Assembly: GCF_003018115.1 (NCBI RefSeq)
Contig: NZ_CP027458.1
Direction: 5' to 3' (one strand)
Source of the DNA: Escherichia coli
GTDB lineage: Bacteria > Pseudomonadota > Gammaproteobacteria > Enterobacterales > Enterobacteriaceae
DNA length: 64,000 nt
The position numbers are program-made. Shown piece by piece: positions 57,001 through 60,000 of this stretch (position 1 is its first letter; every line of letters begins with the position of its first letter).

Positions 57001-60000
57001 ACTGAAGCCGGCTGCGGCCTTACGGCAGAATTTCGCCTCGCCCGTGAAAGCCCTGACATCCACACCATTCAGGGCGGCAACATCCTTACCAGCAGCGGCC
57101 AGTGCCGCCAGCTGTGATACTGCCTCACCAAAATCACTGCTTTTTCCGCTATGCGCCTTGTCGCATTCACCGTCAAGGCAGAAGACATCACCACCACAGA
57201 CCATCACTTTTCCGGACGTTCTGGACTCGCAGGAGTACGTGGCATACTCATGCAGACAAGCTCCCTCATCGGAATAAAACGCGCACTGACGTGAGGCCAG
57301 CGTACAGGCCGGATTATCGACATATTTCTGACAGGTGCCGTTATCTGCGGACTGTGTGACATATTTATCCCGGTATGCCCAGCACGCCTGTGTGATGCTC
57401 CAGGTTTTACCTTCCATCACACCCGTTTTCGTACCACCCGGTTCTGAACACTCAGTGCCTTTCAGCACGCCATCCGCTTTATTAAACGGACAACTCTCCA
57501 CCCACTCCACCCGTGGAACCCATTCCTTATCACGGACCTTCATCCTGAGTTTCAGCGTAAAGGTGGAAGCACCACTGACAAGCGATTCATAGACCATCCT
57601 GTCACCATTCCCGTGCGGGAGGCAATTACCGTTTGCAGTACAGCCACTACCGGTCAGAACCTGCCCCTGTGTGACAGAAAACCCGGAGGGCACAGGTATG
57701 GTGAAAGTCCCGCTCTGTCCTGTAACCAGTTGCACATTAAAGGCTGTGTTCATAAAGTCGTAACGGGAGTTAAGGAAATATAGCCCTGCATGAGCCGACA
57801 GCGAGGCACTTTCCACTGTCCCGGCAACAGGTACGGTAACGCTGAACACCAGTTTCAGACCGTTCATACTGAACCGGAACTGTGAGTGCGGTATCGTCAC
57901 CTCACGATATTCATCCGTGTATTTCCAGTCTCCTGTGATCCTGGCTGTCCTGGAACAATATTCCTCCACCATCGTGTCACGTTCACAGGTATAGTTTGTG
58001 AATTCACTGCGGTTTATCTGCTGCGCACTGCACTGCTGTCCGGTATTTCCCACGATACTGTCAGCCCGGTTCACCACATCCCTGCCGGTCTGAATAAACG
58101 GCGCATCCGGTGACAGAATGTCTTTCGGCTTGTTCATGAATGACTCTGTGATGGTTTTGCCGGTTTCACTGGTTGCCCATTGTGTGGTGCCGTTATTTTT
58201 CAGACCGCCATCCCCGCCGGCAGTCACCCCACCGTAATACCGCGTCTCATCCGGGTTCGCGTTATACCCGGGGATACTCTCCTGCGGATTAAAACTCTGA
58301 ATACTGCCAATACCCTGCCCCTGGATCTGACGGGCAAAATCGGAACCTGCCCGGTAATCACTGTTGCTGTCGGCAAATACAGAAAAGCTCAGGAAAAAAA
58401 CAATTGCACAAAGATTGCACGGTTTTCCAGAGTCATTAAAATTCAGAGACCGGAAAAAGGTATTTATCTTTTCTTTCATAATCTGAACCAAATGGAGAAT
58501 GAAGTGATGTCATCTCAACTTCAGAACTGTGTTGATTGTGGTAAAGCATTAAGTCGAACAGCCACAACATGCGGGAATTGCAGCTCAACGGCCCCTTTTG
58601 GAAAAAAACGCCGCAACGATCGCTTGCATAAATGGTTTGCAGGGCTGTTTATTACAGCTACTATTATTGCTGGCGGGCTATGGTACATGGGACTTCTTGA
58701 TGTACCGGGATTATTACTCAGATAACGACTTCAGTAACGATATCAGTGTCCTAAAATCAGCACATAACGAGTGACGACAGTACCGGTTATACCAGTAATA
58801 AGGGGCTTCGGGCTGAAGCCTGAAACAGAGCTGAAACTCGCTGTTAAAAGCCCCCTTCACCGACCATCCCCATGCCAGACGTGGTATTGCTGATTCAGCA
58901 TCCTGCCGCAGTCGCCGTTCAAGAAGGGCGGCCATTTTTACCGGACAGACAAAGGCAATGTAAGGCGGCAGCTTTGTAACAGGGAAACCATGTCCCTGAC
59001 AGGAGGCATATGTACGGAATCCGTGAACGTTCATCGCAGCCACCAGTGCACGGATGTCCGGGTCAATCCGGTAATACCCGGCAGGTAAACTCATTGCGGC
59101 TTATCCCCGGTGCCGTCCAGCAGTCCCTGAGCCACCTGCCGGCAGTCTCCCGTGGCAGCCACTTTTTCCAGCGCCTGCCTGACGCGCAGATTTCCCCGGA
59201 TGATGTCGTGCCCCTGACTGCAGAACACCACCAGGGCCGGCACGCTGCGGATGCCGTACTGTGAAAACAACGTCGGGTCGATCTGAACACCATCGGTCGC
59301 GCCATCTTTTACCAGAGACAACACGGCTTCAGCGGTAGTCTTCAGGTCATTGTTCACCATGCCCCGCAGTGTGGCCGGAATACCGTAGTGCCGGGTTTCT
59401 CCCAGCATCCGTTTCAGTCCCTCTTCGGGAATGGAGAACGATACAAAATACACGGCCCCCTGCTGTGGTTTGTCTTTCTGAGCAGCCTGCTGTTTACGGA
59501 CCAGTTCATCGAGAAACTGGTTATCGGCATGCAGAAGGGGATTCGCCCTGACCTGGTGTTCTGCCCATGCCTGCAGTTGTGTGTCCGGCTTTTCACGCAA
59601 CTGCTGACTCAGTGTTTCCTGCTGCTTCAGGAACTGGCGATTTTCGGGCGTATTCACATTTTCCGAAGCATGGGCAGAAAGAAACAATCCTGCTGTCAGG
59701 GCGAATAAAATGTATATTTTTTTGTTCATAGAATTCTCCTGCAAACAGACAGTAATTAATCGTCATAATGAGGCGCTCAATAGAGCGAGTCTGGAGATAG
59801 CTGACGCCATGTTAAACACAACGAAGATCGTTGATTAACTTCTTTCTCCATTTATCTTTTTTCTGAGACTGGCAGCAATTAGATAAACGATACCGGATAT
59901 TCACTCTGTTAAATCATTAATTCATTTCTGACCGATACACATAAAATGAGTCAGATATTACCCGTTATTCTCTTCTTCATTTTTGTTTAATCTCTTTCCC

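Follow-up and report, generated by a model that had tools for sequence, protein, structure and literature searches.

A Convergent Gene Pair at the trbC–traN Junction

The window analyzed here, a stretch of 64,000 nucleotides of Escherichia coli (contig NZ_CP027458.1, assembly GCF_003018115.1), includes an F-type transfer operon in which two small genes facing each other lie between trbC and traN. One of them, the open reading frame (ORF) called here ORF126, is at 58714–59094 on the minus strand and codes for a cytoplasmic protein of 126 aa with a minimal TYW3/Taw3-like domain. The other, called here the ZR (zinc-ribbon) gene, is at 58507–58725 on the plus strand and codes for a tail-anchored zinc-ribbon membrane protein of 72 aa. 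The genes converge, and their 3′ ends overlap by 12 nt (58714–58725, both strands). At its other end, ORF126 shares an ATGA with trbC (59091–59094, minus strand), formed by the ATG of the former (59094–59092) and the TGA of the latter (59093–59091), and this overlap couples the translation of ORF126 to that of trbC. A preliminary description of this DNA had given the 126-aa frame exactly these limits and this overlap, which can be read directly from the sequence, and its view of the frame as a genuine, translationally coupled member of the operon is borne out.

In the F plasmid, as the same description stated, no gene lies between trbC and traN, and these overlap each other by 4 nt, by means of the same ATGA. 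Neither ORF126 nor the ZR gene was found in R100. In comparison with F and the IncFII plasmids, the insert spans the region between the ATG of ORF126 (59094) and the start of traN (58479), i.e., relative to F the junction has received a mobile two-gene cassette of about 0.7 kb. Linked to the cassette is an alternative 5′ end of traN, with its own start codon and a signal peptide of 35 aa (58375–58479, minus strand). This leader of 35 residues (MKEKINTFF...SVFA/DSNS) is longer than the MKR... leader of F and IncFII and unrelated to it, and in the alignment the homology of traN to F/IncFII picks up again at ADSNSDYR. In the window, traN is no longer ATGA-coupled to trbC. A repeat search revealed no flanking repeats of note around the cassette.

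Both ORF126 and the ZR gene are real genes under selection. In a comparison of six lineages, with dS reaching about 1–1.5, the ratio of nonsynonymous to synonymous substitution rates (dN/dS) is 0.10–0.18 for ORF126 in its annotated frame and 0.10–0.22 for the ZR gene. The latter is the lowest value among the six frames, the other ones giving 0.3–2.2 and containing stop codons. The two ORFs are one conserved convergent pair and not separate curiosities, a point that the preliminary description had overlooked.

Distribution and Conserved Pairing

Homologs of ORF126 are found by tblastn in 925 of the 72,556 plasmids of PLSDB, 791 of these being typed as conjugative. Among the genera represented are Escherichia, Klebsiella, Vibrio, Providencia, Salmonella, Shigella, and Aeromonas. 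A tblastn search of 50,697 phage genomes with ORF126 gave no match. The ZR gene is present in 119 PLSDB plasmids, most of which leave it unannotated, and it is intact in 118 of them; the ZR profile has no match among the viral contigs of IMG/VR.

Three alignments of the ORF126 family were used: a first, shallow one (A1), a broad one (A3), and a narrower one (A4). The locus search with A4 gave seven genome loci. At every setting examined in which a ZR homolog was found, a TYW3-like gene lies on the opposite strand and the 3′ ends overlap. The pair occupies the trbC–traN junction in E. coli-type plasmids (the window, L001–L003, L018, and L019), the traH–traG junction in another F-type operon (L015–L017), and the interval between trbB and traH in Providencia hangzhouensis (L021). 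It is also present in Serratia pE36_1 (L020), where ZR, and not the enzyme, is co-directional with a transfer ATPase; in Vibrio pLH24-1 (L012), where it adjoins Hok/Gef; in a chromosomal island of Pectobacterium (L026), between DUF6387 and two integrases; in a metagenome-assembled genome of Rubrivivax (L027), where it adjoins a TIR-like protein; and in metagenomic elements (L008 and L031), the first of which places it next to an integrase. The partners at these settings are 30%–75% (enzyme) and 32%–74% (ZR) identical to the ones of the window.

A search that starts from the enzyme is biased toward loci having it. This bias was removed by scanning a metagenome collection with a DNA pattern of the ZR motif alone, which returned 120 loci. 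Plasmid-type ZR proteins with a transmembrane (TM) segment are encoded at 23 of these loci, and a convergent TYW3-like gene is present at all 21 that can be assessed, the other two being at contig ends. The overlaps at the scanned loci range from 12 to 78 nt or amount to full nesting, and about ten independent lineages are represented. The ZR gene and the TYW3-like gene are thus a conserved unit, with an obligatory convergent architecture, that is mobile between sites. At the traH–traG site, the pair adjoins a decayed traN leader, of which a remnant of 76 aa is left (L015 3742–3972). The presence of this remnant shows that the cassette moved there from a trbC–traN site together with its left flank.

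The more general rule that ZR never occurs without the enzyme was considered and abandoned: it is true for the plasmid-type subfamily only, and a related group of 64–67 aa from E. coli islands stands alone. The members of this related ZR-TM family (KKKCRDCGNAITHNTVCCPYCGSVDPFGYYR plus a TM segment; WP_001297219.1, "hypothetical protein") are represented by L038 2385–2585 and L154 4086–4286, the latter being the chromosome of E. coli ATCC 11775. Their genes are located in chromosomal islands, with an inovirus-Gp2/YfjJ-like gene and an AlpA-like regulator as neighbors.

The enzyme is also found without ZR. This is the case at the trbC–traN junction in Klebsiella, where its gene overlaps both neighbors, at the traW–traU and traU–trbC junctions, in Providencia alcalifaciens, and in the chromosomes of Citrobacter and Cellvibrio. 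In the IncFII group, a gene coding for a 140-aa HNH endonuclease, coupled to traN, takes the place of ZR (L004 2032–2454; L005 2047–2469). The breakpoint between ZR-type and HNH-type plasmids is the 3′ end of ORF126, i.e., the place where ZR overlaps it. The dN/dS of the ZR-less enzyme is 0.17 for two HNH-type IncFII copies and 0.075 for two traW–traU copies, values indicating that the enzyme stays under purifying selection and would function independently of ZR. That ORF126 and the HNH protein form a restriction-modification-like pair was considered and rejected, as the HNH family is present in 2,706 plasmids, including some of IncHI2 size and of the Salmonella virulence type, and mostly without a TYW3-like gene.

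Two chromosomal settings deserve mention on their own. In Cellvibrio (L028), a TYW3-like gene lies near an AHH-family nuclease toxin and an N6 DNA methylase (6902–7543 and 8143–9720), and in Rubrivivax (L027) the weak TIR-like protein near the chromosomal TYW3-like gene is encoded at 5837–6652.

ORF126 and the TYW3/Taw3 Fold

ORF126 has no match in Pfam, NCBIfam, PHROGs, or PADLOC (for the Pfam TYW3 model, none at E ≤ 1), and is labeled "hypothetical protein" in about 900 plasmids. Hence, it is not one of the tra proteins already known by a different name, in agreement with the preliminary description, which had treated it as an unknown gene. A profile search of 1.84 billion cluster representatives gave 429 relatives at E ≤ 1e-3 (clusters at 50% identity), and the family is therefore real and fairly large. 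It has a near-invariant block that reads I-D-P-x-I-x-x-L-V-x-A-M-N ... T-x-A-S-C-(Q/E)-G-H ... P-Y-V-A-F ... W. In ORF126, the central motif is T28-Y-A-S31-C32-Q-G34-H35-G36 (codons at 58987–59013, minus strand), invariant in A1 and A4 and conserved at a level of at least 90% in A3.

The first profile, built from the shallow A1, found nothing real among the sequences of the Protein Data Bank (PDB). A profile of 122 family sequences matches 2qg3 and 2drv, two TYW3-like chains, exactly over the Asp and the motif (E = 0.017 and E = 0.11, respectively). HMMER pairs T-x-A-S-C-Q-G-H of ORF126 with T-L-S-S-C-S-G-R of both chains, and D11 (within I-D-P-x-I) with their V-D, 22 residues N-terminal of the Cys. 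The conservation of D11 reaches at least 90% in both A1 and A4, and the family thus has the Asp that is invariant in TYW3. Furthermore, 32 of the 122 family members match the Pfam TYW3 model (PF02676) at E < 1, the best one at 2.5e-5, and the AlphaFold2 model of ORF126 has a predicted local distance difference test score (pLDDT) of 89. The active site of TYW3 combines the motif (S/T)xSSCxGR with a His and with an Asp near the N-terminus, and of these residues Asp, Cys, and Arg are essential (PMC5311493). The Asp contacts the sulfonium and the His the carboxylate of S-adenosylmethionine (SAM) (PMC5311493; PMC2034487). ORF126 is a divergent, minimal TYW3/Taw3-like domain, composed of an N-terminal helix with the Asp, the motif, and a four-stranded α/β core. 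As it is 40–65 residues shorter than the solved TYW3 chains, one subdomain appears to be missing, probably the SHS2 insert. No fused Pfam domains were found in ten longer members of the family.

The ZR Protein and Its Expression Signals

The preliminary description of the antisense ORF was right about its nature, i.e., a real coding gene, convergent with ORF126, with CxxC pairs, a basic patch, and one TM helix, but gave it a length of 77 aa and a start at 58494, which call for correction. That position is 2 bases away from the first ATG (58492), and the latter, which would yield the 77-aa product, is not conserved, being CTG in relatives. The conserved, and likely, start is at 58507 and gives 72 aa; it is the one used by the Prokaryotic Genome Annotation Pipeline (PGAP) in pCFSAN004180G. 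A length of 72 aa is shared by all ZR homologs, whose identity goes down to 70% in the protein database and to 44%–50% in plasmids. A GGAG Shine-Dalgarno sequence (58494–58497, plus strand) lies 9 nt 5′ of the start codon, and GGAGAATG is unchanged in all five aligned relatives.

The predicted zinc ribbon of the protein, C8-x2-C11-x10-C22-x2-C25, and the S-T-(D)-P-F-G motif are encoded at 58528–58602 (plus strand). The four Cys, S27, P30, and G32 are invariant in ten divergent members. The CxxC-x10-CxxC pattern scores 15–17 bits in the Pfam zinc-ribbon models (DZR and zinc_ribbon_2/3), whose cut-offs are 25–27 bits. A single TM helix at about residues 43–64 (58633–58698, plus strand) has a Kyte-Doolittle value of 1.67 over 19 residues and a predicted N-in topology, with a net charge of +6 on its N-terminal side. 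It is preceded by the basic patch KKRRNDRLHK, and the hydrophobic segment is kept in all ZR homologs. In the protein, the zinc ribbon would then be in the cytoplasm, followed by the basic patch next to the membrane and by an anchor at the C-terminus.

Over 55300–62300 (7,001 aligned bases), the sole difference between the window and plasmid NZ_CP027581.1 is at position 58592. It changes codon 29 of ZR (58591–58593) from GAC to GCC, so that the otherwise invariant Asp of S-T-D-P-F-G is an Ala in the window. No PLSDB plasmid has this Asp29Ala variant. As a single event it proves nothing, and it would be expected if the activity of ZR were costly; the Ala29 protein of the window is in any case a natural mutant that can be used in experiments.

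The basic patch of ZR is encoded by an A7 run at 58600–58609 (GGAAAAAAAC). A frameshifted ZR variant (P0050, 88 aa), found on four contigs, begins exactly at this run, which may be a slippage hot spot or may point to an assembly artifact.

A putative promoter for the ZR gene, TTGCAC-16 nt-TAAAAT (58415–58442, plus strand), lies inside the signal-peptide codons of traN, about 65 nt 5′ of the ZR start. The same site in L018 (TTGCCC-16-TAAAAT) passes the promoter scan, and L015 and L016, in which no more than a remnant of the traN fragment is left, retain the −10 element. Hence, ZR probably has its own promoter, and the transcript starting there would be antisense to the start region of traN and to the 3′ end of ORF126. 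About 190 nt past the ZR stop, antisense within ORF126, there is a terminator-like hairpin followed by a T-run (58914–58941, plus strand), a low-confidence candidate. The idea that this hairpin is a conserved part of the cassette was dropped: L018 has it, with one compensatory pair, and L015 lacks it, so that its conservation is limited to close relatives. In Vibrio pLH24-1 (L012), two copies of a strong hairpin (CTAGGTCGTGATACGACCTAG, then a T-rich tail), at 4988–5018 and 5799–5819, flank ZR on the ZR strand, one of them lying in the 5′ portion of the TYW3-like gene.

The Surrounding Operon

The genes around the cassette form an F-type transfer operon on the minus strand, for which plasmid NZ_CP027581.1, 99.9% identical to the window, was taken as the annotation reference. 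On the basis of NCBIfam, Pfam, and this annotation, trbI is at 61936–62322, traW at 61307–61939, traU at 60318–61310, and trbE at 56304–56561. The genes flanking the cassette are trbC at 59091–59744 (NCBIfam TrbC, 414 bits) and traN at 56575–58479 (NCBIfam TraN, 1303 bits).

The gap between traU and trbC (59745–60317) is AT-rich, with a GC content of 0.36 versus about 0.52–0.58 in the flanking tra genes. It contains a hydrophobic ORF of 92 aa (60013–60291, minus strand; hypothetical protein WP_021573907.1) without a family match. This gap looks like another accessory landing site, because other plasmids hold different genes there.

Proposed Mechanism and Alternatives

The reading that we favor, with a probability of roughly 0.4, is that ORF126 is a SAM-using modifier of nucleic acids, that ZR is its membrane-anchored partner facing the cytoplasm, and that the two are expressed reciprocally. 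ORF126 has taken over the ATGA coupling to trbC and is therefore made together with the proteins of the mating apparatus. It would use SAM to modify a nucleic acid, possibly host tRNA or DNA, and not wybutosine. The modification would benefit the mobile element, and in the lineages lacking ZR the enzyme would act alone. ZR would be an optional membrane-tethered partner, whose zinc ribbon binds or controls either the enzyme or its target. Because the genes face each other and overlap, their transcription is expected to be mutually opposed: when the tra operon is on, ORF126 would be made and ZR suppressed, and when it is off, ZR would be expressed from its own promoter.

Several observations weigh against this reading. 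The threshold of PF02676 (27 bits) is not reached by the family, whose best member scores 24.1 bits over positions 12–48 of the 211 of the profile, and a Foldseek search of the PDB with ORF126 gave no match at E < 0.05. The TYW3 signature is not intact: the Thr, the second Ser, the Cys, and the Gly are kept, but the first Ser is replaced by Ala. The Arg that is essential in TYW3 is a His (H35) in nearly all family members, and nothing equivalent to the SAM-binding His could be recognized, the sole conserved His of the family being the one in the motif. The ZR-less homolog of Klebsiella pRHBSTW-00113_3 (L010 4986–5369) has S-C-Q-G-Y-G, i.e., Tyr for His35, and may be inactive or altered in function. 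With the signature broken and the Pfam score below threshold, ORF126 falls, on sequence grounds, outside TYW3 proper. As for ZR, 3,202 of 5,426 complete E. coli genomes carry the related ZR-TM family with no TYW3-like neighbor, and because this family stands alone, ZR-type proteins do not need the enzyme in general. Finally, the promoter-like site of ZR is under the scan threshold in the window, and reciprocal expression would follow from the geometry of the genes only.

Two of the alternatives deserve serious consideration. It may be, although this is doubtful, that the pair is a conflict module (toxin/antitoxin, addiction, or defense), in which ZR is an effector, acting on the membrane or binding a target, that does harm when expressed alone, and the TYW3-like protein neutralizes it, by modification of the target or by binding to ZR itself. 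The convergent overlap would then act like a type I antisense control, and the loss of the element or the silencing of ORF126 would release ZR. This would fit a self-contained mobile pair found near integrases, Hok/Gef, a TIR-like protein, an AHH nuclease toxin, and a type I methylase, in which the plasmid-type ZR is always accompanied by the enzyme (21/21) and the enzyme is often alone, like orphan antitoxins or methylases. It would also fit the strict convergent overlap, which is unusual for subunits of one complex. The one base distinguishing the window from its closest plasmid over 7 kb removes the invariant Asp of ZR, and a frameshifted ZR variant is in circulation, but ZR is intact in 118 of the 119 plasmids and under purifying selection, which argues that it is not commonly inactivated. 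Moreover, PADLOC gives no match, a zinc ribbon is atypical of small membrane toxins, related ZR-TM proteins are alone in most E. coli chromosomes, and the enzyme remains selected long after the loss of ZR and must then be more than an antidote. The convergence of the genes is a difficulty for the rather unlikely hypothesis of a conjugation helper or anti-restriction system, since the partners of a complex are normally co-directional. Under that hypothesis, ZR would tether or activate the enzyme near the type IV secretion channel, in the manner of Trm112, and the enzyme would modify the outgoing DNA strand or pass into the recipient. The presence of the enzyme gene at five different F-type tra junctions, usually with start/stop overlaps, speaks for such a role, as do the conjugative typing of 791 of the 925 carrier plasmids and the predicted cytoplasmic zinc ribbon and membrane anchor of ZR. 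However, the pair also occurs in chromosomal islands without adjoining transfer genes, half of the lineages lack ZR, and the gene is outside the leading region, which is the usual place of early anti-restriction genes.

It is improbable that the plus-strand transcript serves mainly as an antisense RNA regulating traN and the downstream tra genes, with the ZR peptide being secondary. The predicted transcript, from near 58449, does run across the start of traN (58479) and the whole gap and into the 3′ end of ORF126, and traN has lost its ATGA coupling to trbC. However, it is the ZR protein that is selected (dN/dS of 0.1–0.2), with the Cys, the DPFG, and the TM segment kept down to 32% identity; the pair is conserved where traN is absent altogether; and the trbC–traN gap has no Rfam match and no significant RNA folding (z = −0.9). 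Still far less credible is that ORF126 is a genuine TYW3/Taw3 tRNA-wybutosine N4-methyltransferase, or else that the two ORFs are non-functional hitch-hikers. The fold and the motif do resemble TYW3, and the genes are indeed annotated as hypothetical or not at all. Yet, the essential Arg is replaced, the protein is about 65 residues shorter than TYW3, and wybutosine/wyosine is absent from Bacteria (PMC4417183), so that N4-methylation of a wybutosine precursor is unlikely for ORF126. Junk ORFs are excluded because both genes are under purifying selection and ORF126 belongs to a family of 429 clusters. A wider proposal, unlikely as a whole, is a new two-gene system in which a bacterial offshoot of the TYW3 class modifies host or plasmid nucleic acid and the antisense, tail-anchored ZR acts against it or as its effector. 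Through reciprocal expression, the two would make up a switch for addiction, exclusion, defense, or anti-defense tied to the state of conjugation.

The enzyme-like gene lies in or near the transfer genes of about 900 plasmids from E. coli, Klebsiella, Shigella, Vibrio, and Providencia, many of them clinical resistance plasmids. If the module affects plasmid transfer, stability, or evasion of defenses, it bears on the spread of resistance plasmids. The placement of ORF126 near TYW3 provides hypotheses that can be tested, namely binding of SAM, catalysis by Cys, His, and Asp, and a nucleic acid as the target. Methyltransferases of the TYW3 class have until now been known only in the wybutosine pathway of archaea and eukaryotes, and a role of this kind for ORF126, if true, would be the first for the class in bacteria. 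Independently of function, the conserved head-on overlap is a clean natural model for the reciprocal expression of a pair of proteins, and the junctions between tra genes emerge as reusable landing sites for accessory cassettes.

Comparison with Known Systems

ORF126 is not a core F-type tra/trb gene: it has no NCBIfam model, is absent from F and R100, and varies in its position among the tra genes. In a literature search, no paper on ORF126 or the ZR gene was found, and no curated family either; the review "Five shades of F" and a 2026 preprint on F-like transfer operons contained nothing relevant.

The preliminary description had called an antisense membrane-protein gene in a transfer operon unusual. 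As an arrangement it is not unprecedented, since F itself has artA, although the protein is an unrelated one. Located between trbA and traQ, artA is, like the ZR gene, a small membrane-protein gene opposite to the tra strand. It differs in its position, in lacking a zinc ribbon, and in that no convergent enzyme gene is known to accompany it. A relationship between ZR and ArtA was considered and dismissed, as the two have no sequence similarity.

Type I toxin-antitoxin loci with convergent transcripts overlapping at their 3′ ends are well known, for example txpA/RatA and bsrG/SR4 of Bacillus. The likeness lies in a small membrane-protein gene, on a mobile element, whose 3′ end overlaps with that of a converging transcript. 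Here, however, this transcript codes for a conserved enzyme and is not a non-coding RNA, and ZR has a zinc ribbon. The plasmid-type ZR behaves as the partner that is never alone in toxin-antitoxin systems (21/21), and the enzyme does occur alone. Another parallel is given by the small zinc-ribbon proteins of the Trm112 type, which activate methyltransferases. What the two cases share is a genetic link between a small CxxC...CxxC protein and a methyltransferase or methyltransferase-like enzyme. In contrast with Trm112, ZR is membrane-anchored and the genes are convergent and not co-expressed; the comparison is one of analogy. The HNH endonuclease of the IncFII group occupies the same slot as ZR, directly 3′ of the TYW3-like gene, but it is an unrelated, co-directional protein that has spread independently of the enzyme.

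The closest known relative is found for the enzyme. With TYW3/Taw3, ORF126 shares a conserved Asp on the N-terminal helix, the signature T-x-(S/A)-S-C-x-G-(R/H) at the same place, and a probable RAGNYA-type α/β core, a fold that binds nucleic acids and nucleotides. It differs in its size (126 aa versus 166–213 aa) and in that its family is bacterial and on mobile elements, bacteria being without the wybutosine pathway. The two-gene module as a whole is without a described counterpart, and its enzyme is best regarded as a variant of the TYW3-class fold.

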